Below are positions 4,682 through 17,013 of a stretch of 32,000 bases of DNA, piece by piece. The position numbers and the translations under genes are program-made. Origin of the DNA: Candidatus Methylomirabilis limnetica (GTDB lineage Bacteria > Methylomirabilota > Methylomirabilia > Methylomirabilales > Methylomirabilaceae). The notes under the pieces are model-generated. The model made no database searches and was not told where the DNA came from. It worked only from the letters and a program-made list of their open reading frames with translations. The stretch is taken from contig NZ_NVQC01000023.1 in the NCBI RefSeq assembly GCF_003044035.1, positions 90,001 to 122,000 on the forward strand, read 5' to 3'. Positions within the stretch are counted from its first letter, which is position 1. The number at the start of each line of letters is the position of its first letter.

Positions 4682-5848
4682 TTACAGCACTCGCTTGAGG
4701 CCATGAATGGCCTGGCGGGTCCGGTGTTCGTTTTCCACCAGGGCGAATCGCACATACTCGTCCCCGTACTGTCCGAATCCGATCCCCGGGGACACGGCAA
4801 CCTTCGCCTTGTCGAGGAGGAACTTCGAAAATTCCAGAGACCCCATGGTCCGGTACGACTCAGGGATCTTTGCCCAGACAAACATGGTTCCCTTCGGCTT
4901 CGACAGATTCCACCCGATCCGGTTCAGCCCATCTACCAGCGCATCGCGCCGCGTCCGGTAGATCTCAACCGTCTGCCCCACGCATTCCTGCGGGCCGTTC
5001 AGCGCGACGATCGCCGCGATCTGGATCGGCTGGAACATCCCGTAATCCAGGTAGCTCTTGAGCCGCGTGAGGGCTGCGATGATCCGCGGATTGCCAACAC
5101 AGAAACCGACCCGCCAGCCCGGCATGTTGTAGCTCTTGGAGAGCGTAAAGAACTCCACCCCGATCTCCTTTGCCCCAGGTACTTGCAAGAGGCTTGGTGC
5201 CTGATAGCCATCAAAGGTCAGGTCCGCGTAGGCAAGATCGTGGATCAGGATCAGGTGGTGCTCCTGAGCGAACGCCACCACCTTTTCGAAAAAGGCGAGG
5301 TCCACGGTAGCGGTGGTGGGGTTGTGGGGAAAGCTCAGGATCAGCAGCTTGGGCGGTGGCCAGCTCTCCCGATGAGCAGCCATCAGCGCCCCATAGAAGT
5401 CGGTGCCCTCTTCAAGACGAACGCTGCGGACGTCCCCCCCGGCGATGATCACGGAGTAAGGGTGGATCGGGTAGGTCGGACTTGGCACCAATGCAACATC
5501 CCCGGGTTCCACTACCGCCAAGGCCAGATGCGAAAGTCCCTCCTTGGCGCCGATGGTCGCAATCGCCTCCCGCTCGGGATCGATCTCAACCCCATATCGC
5601 CGCCGATACCAATCAGCGATGGCCAGCCGGAGTTTCGTAATCCCGCGCGATGCGGAGTACCGATGATTCCGAGGGTTCCTGGCTGCCTCACAGAGCTTCT
5701 CGACGATGTGTGGAGGGGTTGGCAGGTCGGGGTTGCCCATCCCGAAGTCGATAATGTCATCGCCACGAGCGCGCGCCTTGACCTTCAGCTCATTCACGAT
5801 ATTAAAGACATACGGGGGCAACCGACTGATTCGGTGGAACTCCTCCAT
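4682..5848 (-). CDS. PLP-dependent class I/II aminotransferase (alanine/aspartate aminotransferase-like)
   Basis: 388 aa with N-terminal [18 protein letters not shown] and the PLP-lysine context [16 protein letters not shown]. These are typical of AlaC/AspC-like enzymes. Substrate was not assigned. Confidence 0.9.
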
Positions 5849-5924
5849 CTGCGCTCCTTTTGGTCACCGTGGCGACCGCTCATCTCTATGGAAAACTCGC
5901 CCTCACGCTACCAAAAGGAGCTAA

Positions 5925-6035
5925 TACTGTCAATATGAAAGAGGGCCTGTGCGGGTTCATGGTAGTCTGCGGGTGACTCCGGCGATGGCGGCGGGAATTG
6001 CGGATCAAGCGTGGGGAGTCGCTGATCTATTAGGG
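5925..6035 (+). pseudogene. Possible remnant of a transposase/mobile-element protein C-terminus
   Basis: A start-less open frame reads ..RGPVRVHGSLRVTPAMAAGIADQAWGVADLLGG. From memory, the TPAMAAG-x-D-x-W-x-x-x-L pattern occurs at the extreme C-terminus of several IS-encoded proteins. No upstream coding part is present. Confidence 0.3.
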
Positions 6036-6057
6036 GGGATAAAGTGGACCAGAAGAG

Positions 6058-6309
6058 CTACCGAAGAAGAGGCAAATGCCTTTTCGCGCACTCCAACTCA
6101 ATTCCAAGTAGACGGGTCATCTGTCTGACGTGTCCAATTTGAATTACGGGATCCCGTCCCCCGTGTTCACCGGTTGGCAATCCGCGAAAAACAAGCCCAT
6201 TGTGATAAACCCAAAAATGATGCTTTTTCCGTTCGTATCTGAAGCCTGGGGCACAGGCAGTGAGCATTGCCAAGACGTTCTTAAACTCTACCTGCCCGAA
6301 CGATGACAA
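6058..6309 (-). CDS. Small HicA-like (putative mRNA interferase toxin) protein
   Basis: 83 aa. The pattern F..V..ML...GF...RKKHHFWVYH....V.GLP.G......I..G.VRQM.R.LGI resembles the HicA layout k..l...G....r.GSHh....p......vP.H....l..G.l..I.....gl. It starts 11 nt after the upstream 157-aa ORF. Confidence 0.4.
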   Translation of the reverse strand: MSSFGQVEFKNVLAMLTACAPGFRYERKKHHFWVYHNGLVFRGLPTGEHGGRDPVIQIGHVRQMTRLLGIELECAKRHLPLLR

Positions 6310-6320
6310 AGACCACCACG

Positions 6321-6794
6321 CTAGGCGGCTACGGCCATCTGCGGCTCTAAAACGTTATCCTTCGGGTTGAAGACACGCAACAGCTTCACCTGTACGGAAC
6401 GTGGGGAATTGGCGGGCCTTTTCTGGAGACCCTTAGAAAGAGCCTCAGCCGTGATCTTTCCAGCGCGAACATCAAGAACAGCGGCATGCCATTCTTCCTC
6501 TGTTGGACAATTTATCCCCTTGAAGAATCGACCCACTTCCGCCTTGAACGAATTGAAGTCCTTAGCGTCTTCGGCAATATCGAACAGAATGACGGTGAAT
6601 GCTTTTCGAAACTCGCGCTGCGCCTCCATGAATGTGGCACCTCCCGCCGACAAGTCGCCAGGCTGGACGCCATACATCCACCAACCGTCAGATTCCTCGA
6701 CCGCTAAGCCGCGACCATGAACGGTAATACCTGCCAAAAAGCCCTCTCCCGATACCTTATCCTGAAAAGTGAACAGCAAAGGATACTGATTCAT
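6321..6794 (-). CDS. Putative HicB-like antitoxin partner / hypothetical protein
   Basis: 157 aa. The segment GWWMYGVQPGDLSAGGATFMEAQREFRKAFTVILFDIAED resembles the HicB N-terminal domain (..G.f.v.fPdlpGc.t.G.t.eEA...a.eal...l). No recognisable HTH or RHH tail is present. It is tightly linked to the HicA-like ORF. Confidence 0.35.
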   Translation of the reverse strand: MNQYPLLFTFQDKVSGEGFLAGITVHGRGLAVEESDGWWMYGVQPGDLSAGGATFMEAQREFRKAFTVILFDIAEDAKDFNSFKAEVGRFFKGINCPTEEEWHAAVLDVRAGKITAEALSKGLQKRPANSPRSVQVKLLRVFNPKDNVLEPQMAVAA

Positions 6795-6851
6795 GCGATA
6801 CCCTCATTGCTCAAACATTGATTGGTATATCTCTTAATTGCGATTTTTTAT

Positions 6852-6877
6852 AGTATACCCCCAGACGACGCTGTCAA
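6852..6877 (-). promoter_or_regulatory. Sigma70-like promoter for the hicB/hicA-like pair
   Basis: On the minus strand there is TTGACA (6877-6872), then TATACT (spacer 14) or TACTAT (spacer 16). It lies in an AT-rich tract about 60 nt upstream of the ATG at 6794. Confidence 0.35.
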
Positions 6878-7023
6878 GAAAAATGTTATCTACAAGTTAA
6901 ATATGCTACCCCATAAGGTATTAACCAACATCCATGCCATGAGCAAAATCAGCCCAATCAAATTAGGACACTACCGAGGGCCTGAAGTAGGCCGCCGCGA
7001 AGCCTGATGTCCCGACGCGAAAG

Positions 7024-7226
7024 CTACATCCGTTCGGGAGCGGAGACGCCAAGCAACCCAAGCGTGTTGGCCATGACCACGCGAAGGGCGGCCACAAGCG
7101 CCAGGCGTGCATGCGCGAGATTCCTATCGGCGGAGATAATCCGATGGCGGGTATATGGTAGCCGTGAAACTGCGCGGCGAGGTCGTGCAGATAGATGGTG
7201 AGCCTGTGCGGCTCCAGCACCTCTGC
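7024..7226 (-). pseudogene. Orphan, frameshifted duplicate of the argS 3' end (left direct repeat of the island)
   Basis: It aligns base-for-base with 15340-15540, beginning exactly at the argS stop codon. By hand there are about 15 substitutions plus a 2-nt insertion (ggtatatggtagcc versus ggtatagtagcc). It translates as ..EPHRLTIYLHDLAAQFHGY and then goes out of frame. Confidence 0.85.
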
Positions 7227-7233
7227 AATTCGG

Positions 7234-9777
7234 CTAGACCGGTGAATTGAGCAGCTTCTTTAGATCATCTCGCCAGTCACGATCCGCGTATTCTCCCTCG
7301 TCCAGGACTTGAAAGCGGAATGTCTCGTCCCGGAAGTCTTCCGCGAGTTTCTGCCAGGGGACTTTCTGGCCAACTTTTTGAAAGTAGCTGCCCACCGTCC
7401 GCTTGTAGGTTGTGTCTTCGTTTCCTTTGAGATGCTTGCCCTTGCTTTCGACCACAACCACAGAGGCAACCGGCTTTTTATTGTGACCCTGTTGAACCAC
7501 GAAATCCGGATAAATCTTATTCCGCTTGTAGCCTTGGATCGAGAAACAATCCACACCAACGAGATTTCGATACCACCACAGGACTTCGGGATGCTTGTCG
7601 AGATACAGTGCGACCGACTTCTCGTACTCATTGAGGTCGTCCGGCACGTAATCAAAGAGGGACCGTTGGACCGGCTCGTGATCGACATGTATCAGCTTCT
7701 TTGTTCCCCGTATCTCAATCTTGGGTGGAATTTCAAAGCGCCCTTCCACACATTCAAGATAGAAGCCGAGCCGTTTGTTTTTGAACAGCGCCTCGAACGC
7801 TTCTTGCGTTTGACGGTCCGTCCCACGCTGGATCAATCCGACAATCTTTTCACGCACCTCAAACTTAACCAGTCCCAACCGGCCTGAAAGCTCCGGGGTG
7901 AGCTGATACAGACGATCAGTCACCCGACTGACGATCTCCCGTAGCTGCTTCTGGCTGAAGTAATTAAACGGCAGGCTGGCTACCAACCAGGCCTTCACCT
8001 GCTCATCAGTCTCCAGGGTAACAGATTCGCGTTCCGCCACACGCTCAAGATCATCTTGTTCAAGGGTCAGGCGATAGATGGAATCCTTTGCCGCTTCGAT
8101 CGCTGCCGTCATGTTCCAATCTATTCCGGCGTAATCGAACCGTGTGACATCGACCTGACTGAGCAAATGCCGGAAATAGTCGAGGACATCGTACGTGTCT
8201 CCGTGCTTGACGCAAAAGCGGGGCAGATAAATCTTACCCTCGAACTCCCGATAGTAACGGCGGAATTCTTCACGAATAGTAGTCACGCGCTTCTGTCCGG
8301 CTTTGCCGTCGTCCGTACTGCGGTCAACGACGCTGGCCGCGTCGCCTTCGTAGCCCTCCTGTTCCAGCGCCTTCTTGACCTCACGAGAAATATCCGCCGC
8401 CTTTCGCCGCAAACAAAACACATAGCTCTCGTTCAGCTCGTCGAACGGCGTCCTCTCCACATACGGCTGCCGAAGCACCCGCCCTACCAGTTGGGTCATA
8501 CTCTGCTGGCTGCCGGTGTTGTTCAGGGAGACCAGGATATAGGCGAAGGGGCAATCCCATCCCTCCTGCAAGGCTGCCTTGGTGATAATCCATTCCACGC
8601 GGCATCCTTCGGCGAGGAGATCAATGCCCTCAATATCGTCAGTGTCCGAGGTCTTGATGGCGATGGCCGATTCATGGACACCCTCTCTCTGCATCAGATG
8701 TTGCTTCACGTCTTCGCTGTGGACGAAGCCGCTGTCCCGCTGGTCCTTCCCTGTCCGTTCGACTTGGACCAGCACGATCGGGCGAATGAGTTTCTCGCTT
8801 TCCCTGTAATGCTTCTCCGCGAGTTTCGCTAAGTGCTCTCTCTTTTCTCGCGCCTGCGTCAGGCAATTCTTCCAAGACGGCTGGTTGGCGTTGGCGATGT
8901 TGATCGGCAACTTGATCATCTGTTCACCAAGCAGTTCTTTGCCGGTTACCCGAACGAGGACGTTGGCTTCCTTATGTGGCGTGGCGGACAGTTCGACCAC
9001 CACTGAGGCATTGAATCCCTCAATGGTCTTCCGAGCGAGCTCGCTGGTGGCCTTGTGTCCTTCGTCCAAGATGACCGGCGGCTCGCAGAGACGGACCAAG
9101 TTGCCTAGCGAGGTTTTGACCAACCTCTCGTCCTGGTCGTCGTCATCCCCCAGCATGTCTAGGTTCAGGAACTGAACCTTGAGCGCCCCGTGCTTTTCTG
9201 GATCATTTTCGGGCGGGAAATGCTGGACGATGTTGCCCCCGCTATCGCGGAAGAACTTGAGCTGCTCGCGCGTCTCGCGGTTGGTACTGGCGAGTTTCAG
9301 GAGTAGGATATTTAGGTTGCTGCGTAACTGCCCCGGCGTCAGGCGAAAAATCTCGTGCTTTTCCCACACCTCAATACGGCGTGACAGCACGAACTCCAAT
9401 GATTCGCGATAGAAGTGCCTACGGTCGCGAAGCGCCTTGAGCGTGTCCTTGTATATCTGATCGCTGGGAACCACCCACAACACCAACCCAGAGCCGTTGC
9501 GGTTCTTCAGAATAGTTTGATAGACAAGCCCAAGAATCTGAGTAGCCAGTAAAGTCTTCCCGCCGCCGGTGGGTACCTTGATGCAACACGTAGGGAGGTC
9601 TTTTCCTAGACCGTTCTTGCGTGGTCGATACTCGCCGGGCAGATGAAACAGTTTCTTCGCTTTATCCCAAGCAGCCAAGGATGCGTACTGACTCCCGGCC
9701 GTTTGCTCCGAAGCCAACGCGTCCAGAAAGAGTTTAACTTCGCTTATGACGCGTTCCTGATAACGCTTCAGTTGCAT
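7234..9777 (-). CDS. res: Type III restriction enzyme Res subunit (SF2 helicase-nuclease)
   Basis: 847 aa. Helicase motifs are I VPTGGGKT, II ILDEGHK, III LSATP and VI QLVGRVLRQ. The C-terminal PD-(D/E)xK core is IYPDFVV...VVVESKGK. It lies directly downstream of a beta-class methyltransferase. Confidence 0.85.
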   Translation of the reverse strand: MQLKRYQERVISEVKLFLDALASEQTAGSQYASLAAWDKAKKLFHLPGEYRPRKNGLGKDLPTCCIKVPTGGGKTLLATQILGLVYQTILKNRNGSGLVLWVVPSDQIYKDTLKALRDRRHFYRESLEFVLSRRIEVWEKHEIFRLTPGQLRSNLNILLLKLASTNRETREQLKFFRDSGGNIVQHFPPENDPEKHGALKVQFLNLDMLGDDDDQDERLVKTSLGNLVRLCEPPVILDEGHKATSELARKTIEGFNASVVVELSATPHKEANVLVRVTGKELLGEQMIKLPINIANANQPSWKNCLTQAREKREHLAKLAEKHYRESEKLIRPIVLVQVERTGKDQRDSGFVHSEDVKQHLMQREGVHESAIAIKTSDTDDIEGIDLLAEGCRVEWIITKAALQEGWDCPFAYILVSLNNTGSQQSMTQLVGRVLRQPYVERTPFDELNESYVFCLRRKAADISREVKKALEQEGYEGDAASVVDRSTDDGKAGQKRVTTIREEFRRYYREFEGKIYLPRFCVKHGDTYDVLDYFRHLLSQVDVTRFDYAGIDWNMTAAIEAAKDSIYRLTLEQDDLERVAERESVTLETDEQVKAWLVASLPFNYFSQKQLREIVSRVTDRLYQLTPELSGRLGLVKFEVREKIVGLIQRGTDRQTQEAFEALFKNKRLGFYLECVEGRFEIPPKIEIRGTKKLIHVDHEPVQRSLFDYVPDDLNEYEKSVALYLDKHPEVLWWYRNLVGVDCFSIQGYKRNKIYPDFVVQQGHNKKPVASVVVVESKGKHLKGNEDTTYKRTVGSYFQKVGQKVPWQKLAEDFRDETFRFQVLDEGEYADRDWRDDLKKLLNSPV

Positions 9778-9787
9778 GAGAGGATTG

Positions 9788-11458
9788 CTACTTCAAGTTG
9801 AACGGGACAATCATGGGCCGCACCGTCCGCTTCGTTTTCTGCTCAAACTTCGCCAGGTCATCACGGTGCACCCAAATTTTCTCACAGTAAACCACCAAGC
9901 TCCTGTTCTTCTCCATCTTGTCGAGACCCTTGAGCCATTCCATGTCCAATCGGCGGTCTTCCTGACCGTCTGGAGTGTAGAGCAGATAGTAACTGGTCCC
10001 GTGATGTTCACCGATCTTCCCGGTTTTCTCGTTCATCGCCTTCCGGTCGAAGTCTCGGCTGGTCTCCGTATAAAAGATGTACTTGGCGAGATCGTCATAG
10101 CCGGGCAACTGCTTGCCCCAATCGCGGTATTCACCGAAGAGCGGTTTGCCGACGCAGACATAGGCGAAGGAGCCGCCTAGCCCCGTAACTTTTTCTTTCT
10201 TACCCTTCGGGCTCGTATACGTAAACCCCTGAATGACCCGCCGGACCCGCTCCGCTGTGATCTTCTGGCAGATGTTGAACTTGTTCTTCTCCTGCTCTTT
10301 CATTTCGTAGGGAATCTGAACAAGAATAAACCTCCGGTTGCCGCCGTCTTCCTCGTTCAGCCTCAATACTGCATGAGCGGTCGTTCCGGACCCGGCAAAA
10401 GAGTCAAGAACAAAATCGTCTCCCACGGCTACCTGTGCCACCAAGTCCCGAATAAGTAGAGACGGCTTCGGGAAAGGTAATACTGTACCGATCTGGTCTC
10501 CAAATATTTGCCGTATCTCTTCCGTTCCGTCGCTGGTAAAGACTCCGTCAATCACACTCGGGAATCCGAGAACGCCTGATTCCAGTTCTTTAAGGAACAC
10601 CTTCTCTCGTGGCCGTCCTCCTGCTTTTCGTGGCCAAAAGATTCTTTCTTCGGCAATCTTTTGGTCCATCGTCGTCTTACTGCAAATCCATCCTGTTGCC
10701 GGAGGACATCGATACACCTCTTTAGTTTTGGGGTTAACAAAGTCGTAGTGAAGATTGGGTCGCTGTTCTTTAGTCGCTTTGCCTAAAAGGCTACAGCTTG
10801 TCCAATCACCACGTGTATCCTTGTCAGGATTGGAATATTTCGTCTCACTACGCCTTTTTCCAAGAAGCCGACCATCCGAGGATTTCCGATACGCCAGGAT
10901 GTATTCGTGGTCAACCGAAACTCCCGTTTTGGGTCGAGTGTCCGGGAAGTTTCTCGATTTCCAAATAAGCACACCCAGCCTGTTTTCTGGGCCGAAAATC
11001 TCATCCATCATCATCCGCAGATTGTGGACTTCGTTATCGTCGATACTGATGAATATGGCCCCATCGTCGCGAAGAAGTTCCTTCAATAGCTGGAGGCGCG
11101 GATACATCATGCAGCACCACTTATCGTGGCGAGTAGCGTCCTCTCCCTCTTTGCCCACCGCTCGCCCTATCCACTCTTTGAACTGCGGCTGAGTGAGGTT
11201 GTCGTTATAGACCCACCCTTCATTGCCGGTATTGTATGGCGGATCAATATAGATACACTTGATCCGTCCCGCGTGGGTGGGAAGAAGGGCCTTTAAGGCG
11301 ATGAGGTTGTCACCCTCGATGATGAGGTTGCCGTCGAGTGCTGGCTTCTCGCCCTTCCCTAGGACCGACAGCTTGGCGTCGAACTCCAGGGTATGGTGCG
11401 AAATCGTGTGGTGATAGCACTCAATCGCGGTCTTCCCTTTGAACTGCAAAACCGGCAT
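9788..11458 (-). CDS. mod: Type III R-M Mod subunit (beta-class N6-adenine/N4-cytosine DNA methyltransferase)
   Basis: 556 aa. Catalytic motif IV is IYIDPPYNTGN (aa ~70). After ~280 aa (the presumed target-recognition region) comes SAM motif I, FVLDSFAGSGTT. The N-terminal LIIEGDNLIALKALLP is typical of Mod proteins. The mod-then-res order has a 10-nt gap. Confidence 0.9.
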   Translation of the reverse strand: MPVLQFKGKTAIECYHHTISHHTLEFDAKLSVLGKGEKPALDGNLIIEGDNLIALKALLPTHAGRIKCIYIDPPYNTGNEGWVYNDNLTQPQFKEWIGRAVGKEGEDATRHDKWCCMMYPRLQLLKELLRDDGAIFISIDDNEVHNLRMMMDEIFGPENRLGVLIWKSRNFPDTRPKTGVSVDHEYILAYRKSSDGRLLGKRRSETKYSNPDKDTRGDWTSCSLLGKATKEQRPNLHYDFVNPKTKEVYRCPPATGWICSKTTMDQKIAEERIFWPRKAGGRPREKVFLKELESGVLGFPSVIDGVFTSDGTEEIRQIFGDQIGTVLPFPKPSLLIRDLVAQVAVGDDFVLDSFAGSGTTAHAVLRLNEEDGGNRRFILVQIPYEMKEQEKNKFNICQKITAERVRRVIQGFTYTSPKGKKEKVTGLGGSFAYVCVGKPLFGEYRDWGKQLPGYDDLAKYIFYTETSRDFDRKAMNEKTGKIGEHHGTSYYLLYTPDGQEDRRLDMEWLKGLDKMEKNRSLVVYCEKIWVHRDDLAKFEQKTKRTVRPMIVPFNLK

Positions 11459-11529
11459 CTGTCGTTGGACTCCTATGAGTTTGCTAGGGGAATGGGTGGA
11501 GGCTAGACCACGGCTAACTATCCGTCAAG

Positions 11530-11566
11530 CAAAAACAAAAAGGCTCGAATCGTTCCTAGTCGAACC
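11530..11566 (-). terminator. Rho-independent terminator upstream of the mod promoter region
   Basis: The minus-strand RNA folds as GGUUCGA-cuaggaacgau-UCGAGCC (7 bp, one G-U pair), followed by UUUUUGUUUUUG. A TTGACG hexamer (11528-11523) comes immediately after. Confidence 0.6.
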
Positions 11567-11870
11567 TTCGCGAGAGGTTGAGGGTCAGGTTTTGACGTTA
11601 ACAATTGAAGTCCCTCACGTGAATAAACGGCCCTTATCCGTCCTCGCTCCCAATTCAGATGCGACTCCACCGCTCCCTGCCCGTTGGCCCATCTGCTCCC
11701 GTCGCCTCGCACGGTTCCGTCTGCCGAACGCCAAGTCGTCCGCTGCCCCAGGTATCGGTCACGCTGAGGAGATTACCGTTGAGATCGTACCCGAATTGGG
11801 TGAAACCGTTCAAGGGATCGTCGATGGCCCGAGCAATAAGTCAACACTCAAGTCTGACCCCGAATTTCTG
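11567..11870 (-). pseudogene. Decayed Rhs/YD-repeat protein fragment
   Basis: The minus strand reads ..DPLNGFTQFGYDLNGNLLSVTD in one frame. After a -1/+1 shift it continues LGQRTTWRSADGTVRGDGSRWANGQGAVESHLNWERGRIRAVYSREG. This matches the YD-repeat pattern (YxYDxxGNLxSVTDxxGxxTxY..DxxGR). It has no start codon and is split over two frames. Confidence 0.4.
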
Positions 11871-11933
11871 ACCCCTGTGTGATTGCAAGACCTGTCCCTC
11901 TAACCTCCGATCGATTTCGGCCGGGTCCGAATC

Positions 11934-14360
11934 CTATCGCCCGTGGCAGGCTTTATATTTCCTCCCGGAGCCGCACGGACAATGCTCATTCCTGCCAATC
12001 TTCCGCGACGAGGTCGCATGTATGACTTGCTGCTCGATGTGTGACCGGCCTCGAGAGAGCTCCGCTTCGGAGAAAGTGCTAGGCGTTATGATGCGAATCT
12101 TTCTTATGAGATAGGTGCTCTGATTCTTTAGTTGGACCACAAGCCATCTGGTGCTGCCGCCTTGTCGCATCCGCGCAGCGCACCTGACCAGTTCCTCATT
12201 GAAGTTGTTTTCCGAGGCATGGGTGACACTCAGCCCGATTGAGTTGCTGCTGAACGGCAGATGGAGACTTGGCTGTCTGCTTGCACTCCGTCTGCCCTCT
12301 AGAGCTACGAGATTCGCTTCGAACTCGTCTCTGCCTTCTTGGCCCATAGAAAAGAGGATCGAGGCGACCTCGAATCTCCCAGGCAAGCGAGATGTACTTA
12401 GTGCTTCTAAGAAGCCGCTCATCTTTGGGGGTAGGTTCTGTTCCGGAACGCGTGGAGACTCGCCGGCGTAACGTGCAGCAAAATAGAAGTCGATGTGCTT
12501 CATATAGGAAGGATCAAACGACATGTGATCCATTCCTCTGATGGGCAGCTCGTGGTATTGGTTCAGCTTCTGATAGAGGGCGACATGCTCTATTTCGTCA
12601 TGCTGCGACATGACGGTCTCTGATGATGCCTGGAGTCGCTGCTCCAAGAAATGCACGAACTGGAGATCCTTACCAATAAAGAGCTCGGCGACGATTCGAA
12701 GGTCATCAATTGATATGTGCCACGGAAAGGACTTACTGAGTCCCGGGTCGAGGATGGATAGCACAGCGATCTTGGCGCCGACCCAACCAAGGAACTCTCG
12801 GGTAACTACAACCCGAAAGACTCTCCGGTAGTCGGCGATGCGCAGTCTATGTACGACGTTCTTTCCTGACTCATCGTAGAAGACAGTTTCGGGTTGGGAC
12901 TTGATGTAACGCTCAGCTCTTTCTGATTGACGCTGGCCCGCGATGATCAGGTCAGAAAGATCGCTCGCTAGGCTTTTCGGGGCGCCTCGGCTCGCCGCGC
13001 CCGACAGGCCGCCGGATTTGACTTCGACGAGAAAGAGAAGATCATCGACGCCCAACATGATGTCTAATTCGGTCAGGTCGCCAGGACGGTCGGGATTCGG
13101 ATAATAGACCTGCTCAAAGACAAAATCCGGTCGAAGCACACTACTCAAGAGCTCCTTCGATACCTTCTCGATGTGATCCGAATGTTTCTTCGCCATCATC
13201 GTGCCGTCGCCAGCTCTCTTGCTGAGAAGGTCTCCTTCAATGATCTCGGCAATGCGATCTTCGAATCCTGAGTGATAGAACGAATAGAACCGATCGCCGA
13301 CCTGGAGAAACGGCTTGAAGTGCCAAAGGGAGTCGGACAACGGACTCAGGTCATCGTGCTTTGTTAGCGTCGGATCTCGGAGAACTGCTTCTCCTGGCCT
13401 GACTGACAACGTCGATAGAAGTGATCTCGGAAGCGACGTCAAATCGGTTATGTCGAAGATTGCCGGCGTGAAAGTTAGTCGAGCTTTCTCTTGCGCCTCG
13501 GTATGAGCGTCTGCAAACTCGGGTGACGCAACCGCTTGTCTGGTGCGCTCCATGTTCTCTTCCGTGGCGTCTGAGTCCACGGCATACCCTTTCTCTCTGA
13601 GGCGCTCCATCAGGGCATTCGTAGCGCTCATGGCGTCGGCGTATCTGCCCAGCACTCCTGTCTTTTGATACTCCTCGAGGGCCTGTAGTCCGTGCATCAG
13701 GTCCTCGACGCTAATTCCATAGAGCTTCTTGATCCACGGCTCGTAGGGAAACAGTGAGTCTTTCCAATAGTCCCGAAGGAAGAAGGGATAGCGTTGGACC
13801 CGGATCGCTAGCCTAGCCGTGTCCAAATGAAATCGAAGGTCGTCGATTTCAGAAGGCGGAGTCGCCTCAGTCCTTCTTGTAAAGAGATACTGTTGTGTTA
13901 GACGCAGGACATCGAGCGTGAGCGACCAGACCGCCTCCCACTCTTCCTCAGTCGGCTCAGCCCCGGTCGTGTTCGCTTCTGTTCGCGCGATCAGGTACTG
14001 CAAATACTCCACGCCCGGCAGAGAGAATGACTCTTCAGGACCAAACTCGTTCTCAGAGCGGTACTTCAAGAATAGAGGCAGCAGCACGTAGGCGGCGCGG
14101 TGCAGCAGCAGAACAGCATCGTACTTGTGGATCAGGTCCTGGAGGTTGCCAACTTTCTCTGCCAGCTCCTCGTGAATTCTCCTGTTCGCGTCCGCCGCTC
14201 TCCTCAGAAACTCGCGGTGCTCTTCCGGGGTCGACTGGTTCGAGAGCAAAACACTTCGCCCATAGCGGGCGATACTCAGTGGCCCACGGCTAACAACTTC
14301 ATCGGGCGTTGGGCGAATCCACTTCGTTCTGCCCTTTTTTCGGCTGCTCTTCTTTCCCAT
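11934..14360 (-). CDS. Uncharacterised 808-aa protein: central NERD/PD-(D/E)xK-like nuclease core plus C-terminal SEC-C zinc-binding motif
   Basis: It is a long uninterrupted ORF. Residues ~431-450 read ELDIMLGVDDLLFLVEVKSG (D..13 aa..ExK, NERD-like; nt ~13017-13075). The C-terminus CPCGSGRKYKACHGR is a canonical SEC-C motif (nt ~11937-11981). The N-terminus is basic (KKSSRKKGRTK). I recognise no other domain. Confidence 0.8.
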   Translation of the reverse strand: MGKKSSRKKGRTKWIRPTPDEVVSRGPLSIARYGRSVLLSNQSTPEEHREFLRRAADANRRIHEELAEKVGNLQDLIHKYDAVLLLHRAAYVLLPLFLKYRSENEFGPEESFSLPGVEYLQYLIARTEANTTGAEPTEEEWEAVWSLTLDVLRLTQQYLFTRRTEATPPSEIDDLRFHLDTARLAIRVQRYPFFLRDYWKDSLFPYEPWIKKLYGISVEDLMHGLQALEEYQKTGVLGRYADAMSATNALMERLREKGYAVDSDATEENMERTRQAVASPEFADAHTEAQEKARLTFTPAIFDITDLTSLPRSLLSTLSVRPGEAVLRDPTLTKHDDLSPLSDSLWHFKPFLQVGDRFYSFYHSGFEDRIAEIIEGDLLSKRAGDGTMMAKKHSDHIEKVSKELLSSVLRPDFVFEQVYYPNPDRPGDLTELDIMLGVDDLLFLVEVKSGGLSGAASRGAPKSLASDLSDLIIAGQRQSERAERYIKSQPETVFYDESGKNVVHRLRIADYRRVFRVVVTREFLGWVGAKIAVLSILDPGLSKSFPWHISIDDLRIVAELFIGKDLQFVHFLEQRLQASSETVMSQHDEIEHVALYQKLNQYHELPIRGMDHMSFDPSYMKHIDFYFAARYAGESPRVPEQNLPPKMSGFLEALSTSRLPGRFEVASILFSMGQEGRDEFEANLVALEGRRSASRQPSLHLPFSSNSIGLSVTHASENNFNEELVRCAARMRQGGSTRWLVVQLKNQSTYLIRKIRIITPSTFSEAELSRGRSHIEQQVIHATSSRKIGRNEHCPCGSGRKYKACHGR

Positions 14361-14471
14361 GAGGTCTCAAATCAGAATTATCAGAGAAGCCGTGGAGTTG
14401 CACAAAGAAAGGGGGAGGCTAGGCAACATATCGTGTAGCCAGGGGTCAGCCCCCATAATCTTGTGAGTTTG

Positions 14472-14921
14472 TCAGTTCTTGACCTCCAATTCGCGTAACG
14501 GCACGACAATGCTATGACCCCTCAGCTTTTTCACCATGACCTCGTCGGCAGTGATGAGCGGGTATCCCAGTTGCTCACCAAGAGCCACATAGAGGGCGTC
14601 ATAGATGGTGATCTTGTAGGCCCAGGCAATGGCGTTGGCTTTACGCAGTAGTTGAAAATCAGTATCTGTGACATTGAGGTGTAACCCTTCAAGCCCGGCT
14701 ATGGCTCTTGCTCCATGCTCCTCCTTGGCCCTTGAACCGAAGCGGATCGCGTTGAGAACCTCCAAGAAGGTGAGTTCCGTCACATAGATGGTGCAGCGCC
14801 CTGATACATGGAACTCTTTGAGCGCCAGAGCCCGGTCTCGGTCAGGTTCATCGTGCTCAACAAACCATTTAATGAGAACCGACGCATCTACCACGTAACC
14901 CTGGTGATATGCGGGTATCAT
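14472..14921 (-). CDS. vapC: VapC-type PIN-domain toxin
   Basis: The start was reassigned to MIPAYHQGYVVDASV.., whose ATG overlaps the vapB stop as ATGA (14918-14921). PIN acidic residues are present: VVDAS, FLEV, IYDAL and ITADE. Confidence 0.85.
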   Translation of the reverse strand: MIPAYHQGYVVDASVLIKWFVEHDEPDRDRALALKEFHVSGRCTIYVTELTFLEVLNAIRFGSRAKEEHGARAIAGLEGLHLNVTDTDFQLLRKANAIAWAYKITIYDALYVALGEQLGYPLITADEVMVKKLRGHSIVVPLRELEVKN

Positions 14922-15190
14922 CGATCTCCCTTTAAATTTGTATCGCGGAAGCGGCGAATGATCGCTACGGGATCCCAATCCCCAAGCTCTTTAGCCAGGT
15001 CATCAATCCTATGGGAGGCCTCCTGCATCTTCTCCCGCTTTTCCTCTTCTTCCCGCTTCTTCCGTTTCGCCTGCAAGTATTCTTCTAGCGCAGCCTGAAT
15101 GAGAGCGCTGCGATTGGTTCCCTCATCTTTCGCCTCCTCGTTGATCTCATCGAGCAATGCATCTTTCAAGAAAACGTTTACGCGTGCCAT
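14918..15190 (-). CDS. vapB: Ribbon-helix-helix (CopG/VapB-like) antitoxin
   Basis: 90 aa. The N-terminal MARVNVFLKDALLDEINEEAKDEGTNRSALIQAALEEYL is a typical RHH fold pattern. AGGAGG lies 6 nt upstream of the ATG. The gene is translationally coupled to vapC. Confidence 0.8.
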   Translation of the reverse strand: MARVNVFLKDALLDEINEEAKDEGTNRSALIQAALEEYLQAKRKKREEEEKREKMQEASHRIDDLAKELGDWDPVAIIRRFRDTNLKGDR

Positions 15191-15196
15191 GACGCA

Positions 15197-15239
15197 CCTC
15201 CTATAACATCACTAAAGCACATCACCGATGTGTTGTCAA
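15197..15239 (-). promoter_or_regulatory. vapBC promoter with a palindromic operator between -35 and -10
   Basis: On the minus strand there is TTGACA (15239-15234), a 17-nt spacer, TTTAGT (15216-11), then AGGAGG. The spacer contains the perfect inverted repeat CACATC-acc-GATGTG (15218-15232), a plausible antitoxin binding site. Confidence 0.45.
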
Positions 15240-15339
15240 GTATGTTTTAGTGCGACAATCCCTTATTTAAGAAATGCTTAGTGATATCAAGAAGTTGAGA
15301 GAGGGGCGAGGAAAGAATTGCGTAATCGTGACCGTGCAA

Positions 15340-15540
15340 CTACATCCGTTCGGGAGCGGAGACGCCCAGCAACCCAAGCGCGTTGGCCATGACCACGCGA
15401 AGGGCAGCCACCAGCGCCAGGCGAGCGCGCGTGAGATTCCTATCGGCGGAGATAATGCGATGGCGGGTATAGTAGCCATGAAACTGCGCGGCGAGGTCGT
15501 GCAGATAGGTGGTGAGTCTGTGCGGCTCCAGCGCCTGCGC
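15340..15540. repeat. Right direct repeat of the island (the functional 3' end of argS)
   Basis: See 7024-7226. Identity is roughly 90% by manual alignment. Confidence 0.85.
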
Positions 15541-17013
15541 CGCCCCGATCACCAGTTCCGGGTAGAGCGCCAGTTGCTTAATCAACCCGATCTCTTCCTG
15601 CAGATCGAGCGACTCGAGGGCATCCTCTGGGGTGGGAGCTGGAAACTGAGCCTTTGCCGCCTGCCGGAGAATGCTGCACAGGCGTGTGTGCGCGTACTGC
15701 ACGTAGTAGACGGGGTTTTCCTCGGACGCCGACTTGGCGAGCTCCAGGTCAAAGTCCAAATGGCTGTCGCACCGTCTGGTGAGAAAGATGAAGCGCGCCG
15801 CATCACGGCCCACCTCCTCAACCAGCTCGTCCATCATCACGAACTGCCCGGATCGCTTGGACATCCGGACCTGCTCGGTCCCTCGCATTAAACGGACGAG
15901 CTGCACGATCAGGACCCTGAACGCCTCGGGAGGATGGTCGAGCGCCTGCATTGCAGCCCGCATCCGCGCAATGTAGCCATGGTGGTCCGGGCCCCAGAGA
16001 TCGATCACCTGGTCAAACCCGCGAGCGAACTTGTCCTGGTGATAGGCGATGTCCGGAAGAAAATAAGTGATATCGCCGTCGCCCTTCACAAGGACCCGGT
16101 CTTTATCATCGCCAAAGGCGGTCGAGCGAAACCACAGGGCGCTCTCATGCTCATAGAGGAAGCCGCGCTCCCGCAGCGCCTCCATCACCCGCTCTGGCTC
16201 GCGGCGTTCCCGCAGGGCCCGCTCGCTAAACCACCCATCAAAGGTGACCCCGTATGCCTCAAGCGAGGCCCGCTGCCAGCGGAGGATCCGCTCGACCGCA
16301 AAGCGACCCAGTCGATCGCGGCGCTCCGGCTCCGGCGCTAAGAGCGCCTCGGGCCCGTGCTGCTCCAGAAACTCGCGGGCCAGATCGATCAGATAGTCAC
16401 CCGGATAGGCCTCCTCTGGCATGGGGCAGTCCTCACCCAGGCGCTGACGGCACCGCACCTCCATCGCCAACGCGAGGTTGCGGAATTGGTTCCCCGCATC
16501 GTTCACATAGTACTCGCGGTACGGCCGATGCCCGATGGCCTCTAAGAGCCTAGCGATGGCATCACCGATCGCCGCGGCCCTGGCACTGACCACGACGAGC
16601 GGGCCGGTCGGATTCGCGCTGACAAACTCCACGAGTACGCGGCGCCCGCCGCCGACATCAGCCCTGCCGTACGTCGATCCAGCTCGGAGGATCTCCTGAA
16701 CGAGATGACGCCAGAACGGCCTGGCGATAAAGAAGTTCAGATAGCCGGCGCCCGCCACCTCGACGCGATCGACCAGATCGGAAGGAAATGTTGCTGAGGC
16801 GGCAATCTGGAGCGCGATCTCGCGAGGCTTCTGCCTCAGCGCTTTCGCCAGGCCGAAGGCCAGCGTGGTAGAGAGATCGCCGAAGGCCTGGTCGCTCGGA
16901 TATTCCCACGTAAGCTGTGCGGGAGCATCCTGCGCAAGCCCGCTCTCTAAACCAGCCTGCTTGATGGCGGTCAGAAGCGATTTCGTCAGGTTTGTTTTGA
17001 GAGCACTAATCAT
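15340..17013 (-). CDS. argS: Arginine--tRNA ligase (with a non-canonical HIGH region)
   Basis: 557 aa with ArgRS hallmarks: FVSANPTGPL, EYYVNDAGNQ, WGPDHHGYIARM, VRMSKRSG, YVQYAHTRLCSI and C-terminal EPHRLTTYLHDLAAQFH. The expected H-[IV]-G-H reads V-V-V-S. Confidence 0.93.
   Translation of the reverse strand: MISALKTNLTKSLLTAIKQAGLESGLAQDAPAQLTWEYPSDQAFGDLSTTLAFGLAKALRQKPREIALQIAASATFPSDLVDRVEVAGAGYLNFFIARPFWRHLVQEILRAGSTYGRADVGGGRRVLVEFVSANPTGPLVVVSARAAAIGDAIARLLEAIGHRPYREYYVNDAGNQFRNLALAMEVRCRQRLGEDCPMPEEAYPGDYLIDLAREFLEQHGPEALLAPEPERRDRLGRFAVERILRWQRASLEAYGVTFDGWFSERALRERREPERVMEALRERGFLYEHESALWFRSTAFGDDKDRVLVKGDGDITYFLPDIAYHQDKFARGFDQVIDLWGPDHHGYIARMRAAMQALDHPPEAFRVLIVQLVRLMRGTEQVRMSKRSGQFVMMDELVEEVGRDAARFIFLTRRCDSHLDFDLELAKSASEENPVYYVQYAHTRLCSILRQAAKAQFPAPTPEDALESLDLQEEIGLIKQLALYPELVIGAAQALEPHRLTTYLHDLAAQFHGYYTRHRIISADRNLTRARLALVAALRVVMANALGLLGVSAPERM

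Follow-up and report, generated by a model that had tools for sequence, protein, structure and literature searches.

NERD-domain proteins are common in defence islands and on plasmids, and single-protein nuclease effectors are a well-known kind of defence system. Shedu SduA (PDB 8ps5) is a single-gene PD-(D/E)xK defence nuclease. Upx (PDB 9wuf), a large stand-alone defence protein of 1272 residues with a divergent PD-(D/E)xK domain and big uncharacterised sensor regions, has an N-terminal terminase sensor, carries its essential ExK motif at the extreme C terminus (residues 1176–1178), has no SEC-C motif, and binds phage terminase through its sensor domains (PMC13099982, PMC13601566). ZwsA (Zowangsin) is a stand-alone multidomain NERD endonuclease of defence islands with the domain order VHS/DUF647/NERD/S4, a mass of ~82 kDa and an internal NERD domain ~150 residues from the C terminus; it cleaves the genomes of single-stranded RNA phages (catalytic residues E535, D567, E580 and K582), and no SEC-C motif is reported for it (bioRxiv 10.64898/2026.04.06.716636). 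The SEC-C-type zinc motif, CxCxSG...C(H/C), is found in the C-terminal metal-binding domain of SecA and in YecA and YchJ. It does also occur in antiphage proteins, as Rugutis, an experimentally supported single-protein system from lactococci, carries SEC-C on an otherwise novel fold (PMC11381338). Here we describe the 808-residue product of an open reading frame (ORF) at positions 11934–14360, minus strand, of a 32,000-nucleotide stretch of the Candidatus Methylomirabilis limnetica genome (contig NZ_NVQC01000023.1; referred to here as the window), in which a putative NERD core and a SEC-C tail are joined.

This protein probably works on its own as an immune nuclease encoded by a single gene, and it represents a family not named before, which would be new within the well-known kind of single-protein nuclease effectors. 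Its architecture is distinctive, comprising a mid-protein core of NERD type, a second invariant acidic cluster and the SEC-C tail, and the family is described by no PADLOC v2 model, Pfam family beyond SEC-C, solved structure or searchable paper. A first-pass annotation of the window, made by a model from the sequence alone, had matched the architecture to none of the named defence systems, and this holds, with no PADLOC v2 model matched beyond the tail.

The best structural match to the predicted model is Upx (Foldseek probability 0.99, E 2.8e-3, 566 aligned columns, TM (template modelling) scores 0.20/0.15). The two have no sequence similarity, however, a profile search of the PDB does not find 9wuf, and the nuclease lies in the middle of our protein (residues 398–448), with ~360 residues after it; membership of Upx is ruled out by the lack of sequence or global fold homology and by the different position of the nuclease. 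The core of SduA superposes locally (probability 0.97, 222 columns), but in size and flanking domains Shedu is unlike our protein. Neither Pfam nor PADLOC gives an SduA_C/DUF4263 match, and in one island a separate SduA_C gene stands 4.5 kb from a homolog, so that the two are distinct systems and membership of Shedu, which the first-pass annotation had named as a likeness, is rejected.

ZwsA shares the stand-alone multidomain build, the internal NERD domain, the E/D/ExK set and the occurrence in defence islands, but its reported size and domain order, compared by description only, disagree with those of our protein, and identity with ZwsA, which was considered, seems unlikely; VHS, DUF647 and S4 have no Pfam match in the protein or in 61 relatives. 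Rugutis, likewise compared by description only, differs in its length of 359 residues, in the N-terminal position of its SEC-C motif and in having no nuclease domain reported. With SecA, YecA and YchJ only the last ~22 residues are in common, the SecA ATPase, YecA and YchJ domains being absent. A literature search for NERD together with SEC-C, or for SEC-C together with defence, returned Rugutis only.

Domain layout and conservation

The gene begins with ATG and encodes a protein of ~92 kDa, identical to PTL35517.1 and WP_107563030.1 in an exact-sequence look-up. It is annotated as hypothetical or as a 'SEC-C metal-binding domain-containing protein'; the UniRef name, 'Preprotein translocase subunit SecA', is a mislabel due to the SEC-C tail. 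More than 130 full-length homologs at 40–94% identity point to a real gene. The ORF of the first-pass annotation is borne out, with the minus strand, unstated there, now added.

Conservation was followed in an alignment of 26 close homologs, in a superfamily set of 155 representatives from both subfamilies, and in a distant set of 61 sequences at 20–25% identity. Invariant in the close homologs are E398, E431, D433, D440, E446, K448, G450, Q478, R481 and Y485 of the core, the central stretch of which reads ELDIMLGVDDLLFLVEVKSGG (residues 431–451), together with C794, C796, C805 and H806 of the tail. Across the 155 representatives the core positions are retained at 98% (E398), 98% (E431), 100% (D433), 99% (E446), 92% (K448), 100% (Q478) and 95% (R481), and they are still invariant or nearly so in the distant set. 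The residues singled out by the first-pass annotation, D433, E446 and K448, are accordingly invariant in the 26 and conserved at 92–100% in the 155. By its sequence, E398/D433/E446-x-K448 matches the helix-Glu/strand-Asp/strand-Glu-x-Lys signature of an active PD-(D/E)xK nuclease, and the predicted nuclease is very probably catalytically active.

Assignment of the core to NERD comes through the relatives. Among 61 diverse representatives, 17 match Pfam NERD (PF08378) at E<=0.01 (best 2.8e-9) and 57 match SEC-C, and no family beyond these two recurs. A homolog on the Lactococcus plasmid pUCCL637D, named 'NERD domain-containing protein' by NCBI, scores 24.1 bits against a NERD cut-off of 22.1 over its residues 334–425; it aligns with residues 144–687 of our protein at E 4e-37, with E398, E431, D433, E446 and K448 matched, and its NERD segment corresponds to residues ~396–487. 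We accept the core as a putative divergent NERD domain, at superfamily level and by transitive homology, not by direct match. It has the same E...D...ExK catalytic pattern as PF08378, but differs in that the domain makes up ~150 of 808 residues, set between large family-specific regions, and in having a second invariant D/R/DE/D cluster, which NERD lacks. The NERD-type PD-(D/E)xK core named in the first-pass annotation thus finds support in superfamily-wide conservation, in the NERD matches of relatives and in the Foldseek matches, all to PD-(D/E)xK nucleases.

An AlphaFold 2 (AF2) model of the full-length protein, computed from the 26-sequence alignment, has a predicted local distance difference test score (pLDDT) of 85.6 and a predicted TM score (pTM) of 0.84. 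From the N terminus it runs through a β-meander (21–41), a helical domain (45–317) proposed as a sensor or regulatory region, a hairpin and two long helices, a β-sheet core (413–520), a second helical region (547–692), an α/β subdomain (698–758), and a last helix with the zinc knuckle. The core is modelled as helix 383–409, strands 413–421, 429–438 and 441–448, helix 461–488 and further strands, and its Foldseek matches are all at E>1e-3. Matched in the PDB were Upx 9wuf, Nt.BspD6I, SduA 8ps5, VC1899, Can2, the R2 endonuclease domain and McrC, and every high-probability match is a PD-(D/E)xK nuclease or contains such a domain; against the PDB and BFVD, the full-length model has no match at E<=1e-3. 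Residues 537–808 modelled alone (pLDDT 87.2) have no match in the PDB (best E 0.19, probability <=0.28). AF2 and Foldseek, proposed as checks by the first-pass annotation, therefore give matches to the nuclease core only and leave the flanks unmatched, and roughly 600 of the 808 residues are predicted to be structurally novel. The long terminal parts that the first-pass annotation could not place have kept that status, with ~345 N-terminal and ~250 C-terminal residues matching no family or solved fold.

Lying outside the NERD core, in the helical region that follows it, is an unexpected second polar cluster. Its residues are conserved in the 155 representatives at 98% (D553), 100% (R575), 98% (D588), 100% (E589) and 96% (D624), and likewise in the distant set. 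The cluster may form a second site for metal, or the active site may extend to include it.

At the end of the protein is the SEC-C motif, CPCGSGRKYKACH (residues 794–806), matched by Pfam PF02810 at 32.4 bits (cut-off 20.4) and by PDB sequences of SecA C-terminal peptides (E 3e-6) and of a YchJ C-terminal peptide (9l6b, 2.7e-4). Its cysteines are 94% conserved across the 155 representatives; the terminal motif read in the first-pass annotation is thus upheld, above the Pfam cut-off and with all four ligands invariant in close homologs. Outside the tail, no match was found in Pfam (to E<=10), NCBIfam, PADLOC or PHROGs, and sequence and profile searches of PDB chains matched only the last ~25–35 residues. 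The matches in PADLOC-DB v2.0.0 are to E1-E2, E2 and PDC-S12 models only, and are confined to residues 774–808; six distant relatives likewise matched by the tail only, plus marginally to PglW and CARF_PDDEXK at E~0.01. No named defence family is therefore matched in Pfam or PADLOC, and the count of two recognisable elements in the first-pass annotation is unchanged.

The PADLOC defence-candidate models concerned (PDLC00833, PDLC00865, PDLC00872 and PDLC04917; E1-E2, E2 and PDC-S12) and two uncharacterised PHROGs are matched by the SEC-C tail alone, and tails of this kind therefore recur on unrelated proteins of phages and defence islands.

Distribution and genomic neighbourhoods of the family

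A word-indexed search returned 136 matches, nearly all of them full-length proteins of ~800 residues at 40–94% identity, with close homologs from Accumulibacter, Omnitrophota, Polyangiaceae and lineages of the candidate phyla radiation. Scanning one genome per species added a distant subfamily of the same length and with the same SEC-C tail at 22–27% identity, in Rhodohalobacter, Terasakiella pusilla DSM 6293, Colwellia, Opitutales, Acidobacteriota and others, and, in Bacillus cereus, B. wiedmannii and Exiguobacterium, members of ~730 residues that lack the SEC-C tail. In a profile search of 1.84 billion representatives, 936 clusters (50% identity) were found at E<=1e-30, and among the matches listed nearly all span the whole profile and are 770–830 residues long; the superfamily is thus large and of fixed architecture. 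Its spread is patchy, covering NC10, Betaproteobacteria, Deltaproteobacteria, Bacteroidota, Gemmatimonadota, the candidate phyla radiation (Saccharibacteria and relatives), Bacillota and Campylobacterota. Among cultured hosts, homologs are found in Bacillus cereus AFS016912, Colwellia sp. MB3u-45 and T. pusilla DSM 6293, on the Photobacterium damselae plasmid pFPPDNB1-4 and on a plasmid of Aliarcobacter cryaerophilus ATCC 43158.

Some copies are broken. In Parvibaculum and Rhodobiaceae (loci L014, L016 and L017, ~10001–10848) only the part corresponding to residues 527–808 is left, at 37% identity and divided into short ORFs; these are decayed remnants of the family, and the one at L014 adjoins a serine-recombinase-like gene. 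The Lactococcus sp. pUCCL637D copy (locus L044, 5358–8718) is split by IS30 into a 640-residue NERD protein and a 146-residue SEC-C fragment, and is thus an inactivated copy on a dairy plasmid. Eight full-length distant relatives (24–27% identity) come from IMG/VR contigs predicted to be viral or prophage (L053–L060), several of them from isolate genomes. In a reference phage collection only the SEC-C tail was matched, and no full-length relative was found.

Neighbourhoods were compared at 12 close-relative loci, the window included, which were picked only by the extent of assembled sequence, with defence genes scored within 10 kb. Known defence systems were found at six of the 12, one being the Type III restriction–modification (R-M) system of the window. 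The other five carry Abi_alpha, AAA_15/DUF4435, Type ISP R-M and HipA; CBASS Cap15 with a CD-NTase, ArdC and a serine recombinase; AbiTii adjoining the homolog, CBASS with HORMA, and an E1/E2 pair; an integrative element with AAA_13, the homolog, GajB-GajA (Gabija), a separate Shedu gene and SLFN; and Type I hsdMSR directly upstream of the homolog. Four more are mobile elements, namely an smpB-adjacent island with a serine recombinase, a locus with serine recombinases and RadC, a conjugative element with type IV secretion that holds a 65%-identical relative and no R-M, and an IS200-adjacent locus. At the remaining two, neither defence nor mobile-element genes were seen.

Genes found within 6 kb of distant-subfamily members include those of Type I and Type IIG R-M, MmeI, DrmD/DrmA (a DrmD-like SNF2 helicase) and BrxH. 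Defence genes accompany the homolog at three of five plasmid loci: Lit lies directly upstream of it on an Aliarcobacter plasmid, AbiE, HEPN-MNT, AbiV and SAVED are found on a conjugative Bradyrhizobium plasmid, and AbiEi/AbiEii lie 5 kb away on Lactococcus pUCCL637D. On a Photobacterium plasmid the homolog is beside Hok/Gef and DinI, and on an Exiguobacterium plasmid beside VirD4 and RelE. Such neighbourhoods are typical of a gene carried as defence or mobile-element cargo, and the island context from which the first-pass annotation had argued recurs among homologs, at six of 12 close loci and three of five plasmid loci.

When the 520 proteins encoded around the gene at 28 loci were clustered by all-versus-all BLAST, no conserved partner emerged; only serine recombinases (the commonest), Type I R-M subunits and element-specific genes recur. 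An exception is seen in Saccharibacteria, where a conserved gene of ~310 residues with no Pfam match overlaps the stop codon of the homolog (L005, 12352–13281; L039, 12426–13379; L046, 12295–13224) and may be a clade-specific partner.

The acquired islet at argS

In the window, the gene lies between a vapBC-like toxin–antitoxin pair and the Type III mod and res genes, all co-oriented on the minus strand, and here Pfam and PADLOC matches and gene calls agree with the first-pass annotation. Separating it from mod is a gap of 475 nt with an opposite-strand ORF inside, and from the PIN gene a gap of 111 nt. The ORF in the former gap (135 residues, 11475–11882, plus strand) is called by gene finders on every contig of the strain; it is doubtful as a gene, and as a partner it is rejected, since Pfam gives no match and the ORF in the corresponding place next to a homolog is not similar to it.

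The GC content falls to 50–55% over ~6000–15300, against 58–63% in the genes that flank it (argS, phosphoglucomutase and aminotransferase). Direct repeats enclose an 8.3-kb low-GC block of vapB, vapC, the 808-residue gene, the gap ORF, mod and res; the copy beyond res also matches the 3′ end of argS in a sister Methylomirabilis genome, GCA_028716865.1, at 90.5% (blastn). The pair looks like an attachment-site (att) duplication after integration into the 3′ end of argS, and no integrase is found within the repeat-bounded block. Comparison of the sister stretch 10001–14807 (locus L133) with window positions 4682–17013 gave the order argS, ribbon–helix–helix (RHH) gene, PIN gene, a ~96-bp argS-3′ repeat, a DUF433/DUF5615 pair and aminotransferase. 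Missing as a single block from the sister genome are our gene, mod and res (window ~7223–14471, 7.25 kb), and vapBC is kept. With the drop in GC content, the argS repeats and the block missing from the sister genome, the region is an acquired islet, as the first-pass annotation had held, and the argS-3′ site is a variable hotspot with tandem accretion. The vapBC pair is older at the site than the 808-residue gene and untied to it, since the sister genome keeps vapBC without that gene; a specific link between the two is accordingly not supported.

The DUF433/DUF5615 toxin–antitoxin pair of the sister genome stands in place of our gene, mod and res and of an unrelated 1-kb stretch (5949–7017). 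Within that stretch, which has no sister counterpart, and just outside the islet is an ORF of 157 residues (6321–6794, minus strand) with no Pfam match. Coordinates of the features are collected in Table 1.

Table 1. Features of the 808-residue protein and its surroundings in the window.
Feature	Position	Strand	Basis
SEC-C/NERD protein (NERD core putative), 808 residues	11934..14360	-	ORF list, translation, exact look-up, full-length homologs
Three-stranded β-meander, residues 21–41, conserved G26, G34, N41, no known family	14238..14300	-	AF2 secondary structure; invariant columns
All-helical N-terminal domain, residues 45–317	13410..14228	-	AF2, pLDDT mostly 80–95; no Pfam/PDB match
Putative divergent NERD-type PD-(D/E)xK core, residues 385–540: E398, E431, D433, E446, K448, G450, Q478, R481	12741..13208	-	Conservation 92–100% in 155 representatives; NERD matches in relatives; Foldseek
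Helical region, residues 547–692, second polar cluster D553, R575, D588, E589, D624	12285..12722	-	Conservation 96–100%
Small α/β subdomain, residues 698–758, poorly conserved	12087..12269	-	AF2 models; conservation profile
SEC-C zinc-binding motif, residues 790–808: C794, C796, C805, H806	11937..11993	-	Pfam PF02810; PDB SecA peptides; cysteine conservation
vapB-like RHH antitoxin, neighbour, not a conserved partner	14918..15190	-	Pfam RHH_1; sister genome has RHH without the 808-residue gene
vapC-like PIN toxin, neighbour	14472..14921	-	Pfam PIN 1.6e-14; gene call
Type III R-M methyltransferase mod, neighbour	9788..11458	-	PADLOC MTase_III 1.2e-143; Pfam N6_N4_Mtase
Type III R-M restriction subunit res, neighbour	7234..9777	-	PADLOC REase_III 2.6e-138; Pfam ResIII
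Direct repeat copy 1, 3′ end of argS coding sequence, island boundary	15340..15536	.	Repeat search; blastn against sister genome
Direct repeat copy 2, 199 bp, 93% identical to copy 1, just beyond res, island boundary	7024..7222	.	Repeat search

Proposed function and alternatives

That the protein acts as a stand-alone nuclease effector, one of the roles offered by the first-pass annotation, is suggested by the conserved catalytic triad and by the 28 loci without a conserved partner, its function being assigned by association. Members of the family travel as cargo on plasmids and conjugative elements as well as on genomic islands and in regions resembling prophages. If Upx, Shedu and ZwsA are taken as guides, the N- and C-terminal regions outside the catalytic core would keep the nuclease inactive, sense an infection cue or give specificity; a phage or plasmid cue, such as a foreign protein or nucleic-acid structure, would license metal-dependent cleavage of nucleic acid, which would either destroy the invader directly or abort the infected cell. 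The SEC-C tail would most likely serve, in a zinc-dependent way, for docking or for binding nucleic acid; SecB and ribosomes are bound by the metal-binding domain of SecA (bioRxiv 10.1101/613315), and the DNA-binding YchJ has a related zinc motif (PMC13377102). In Candidatus M. limnetica the protein may have arrived, or may be retained, with the Type III R-M system on the 8.3-kb islet, and would act independently of it. Between DNA and RNA as substrate, and between direct restriction and abortive infection, sequence cannot decide.

Several points weigh against a stand-alone immune nuclease. The defence role is assigned by guilt by association, and the association, seen at about half of the sampled loci, is qualitative and without a matched background rate; mobile elements carry many kinds of cargo, and the IS200-adjacent locus and the two bare loci have no defence gene. 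The protein itself has no match to Pfam NERD (PF08378) even at E<=10, and the Foldseek matches are weak (best E 2.8e-3, TM 0.20). The function of the second cluster is left unexplained by a stand-alone nuclease, and whether DNA or RNA is cut, what sets off the cleavage and what the SEC-C tail does are all matters of inference.

It is also conceivable, if unlikely, that the protein serves the mobile element, by competing with other elements, keeping rival plasmids or phages out, or providing post-segregational stabilisation, host defence being a by-product. The conjugative type IV secretion cluster and the Bradyrhizobium and Exiguobacterium plasmids (VirD4 and RelE on the latter), the Hok/Gef and DinI neighbours in Photobacterium, the serine recombinases as most recurrent neighbour, and the eight relatives in IMG/VR contigs all fit such a role. 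Defence systems are typical cargo of the same elements, however, which leaves these contexts unable to tell the two roles apart; a nuclease used for addiction would as a rule require an immunity or antitoxin gene, of which no conserved one stands beside the family, and many of its loci are chromosomal defence islands.

Similarly improbable is an RNA-targeting effector, a variant of the stand-alone nuclease that differs in substrate, with the NERD centre cleaving RNA as ZwsA does, possibly at or near the ribosome. The spacing from D to E is 13 in both ZwsA and our protein (D433–E446), and the SEC-C tail, whose SecA counterpart binds ribosomes, is retained in 57 of 61 relatives; the tail is missing from the Bacillus and Exiguobacterium members, however, and a SEC-C-type motif is also found in DNA-binding YchJ. 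DNA is the substrate of most PD-(D/E)xK and NERD enzymes, and also of the nucleases that our protein resembles best in structure; the likeness to ZwsA, compared by description only, is offset by its different domain order, size and nuclease position near the C terminus.

A more elaborate scheme, that the SEC-C tail docks the protein on the ribosome or SecB for translation-coupled sensing or firing and that the second cluster is a second catalytic or regulatory metal site, would make it a dual-centre effector with no described counterpart, and we regard this as less likely still.

Very unlikely is the other role offered by the first-pass annotation, in which the protein would be a third member of the neighbouring Type III system and work with mod and res as a nuclease that backs them up or senses their failure. 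Although the gene is co-oriented with and adjoins mod-res, and the sister genome lacks all three as one 7.25-kb block, co-transfer on one islet explains this equally well. Of the 11 further close-relative loci annotated with Pfam, not one has a Type III mod/res pair, and no neighbour is conserved; R-M near homologs, where present, is Type I, Type ISP or MmeI, the 65%-identical relative is on a conjugative element free of R-M, and in the window itself the gaps set the gene off from mod and from the PIN gene alike.

A housekeeping role, as a DNA-repair or recombination nuclease or a Sec-pathway accessory, is hardly tenable, since the SEC-C motif in common with SecA, YecA and YchJ and the UniRef name of SecA are countered by a similarity that is confined to the last ~22 residues, by the absence of the gene from the sister species at the same locus, by its low-GC, repeat-bounded islet, by the patchy spread across phyla and occurrence on plasmids, and by the IS30-inactivated copy in Lactococcus and the decayed copies in Parvibaculum and Rhodobiaceae.

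If the defence role is not confirmed, the stand-alone nuclease proposed here would be an ordinary cargo nuclease of mobile elements. If it is true, a large family (at least ~900 clusters) would be added to the single-gene immune nucleases, spanning NC10 and bacteria of the candidate phyla radiation to Bacillus cereus, Colwellia, Photobacterium and lactococcal plasmids. The recurrent annotation 'SEC-C metal-binding domain-containing protein', mislabelled SecA by UniRef, would gain a function, and with the family one could readily study what the SEC-C zinc tail, which recurs on the E2-like and PDC-S12 models and on Rugutis, contributes to immunity. Owing to its members in cultured hosts, the family is directly testable.

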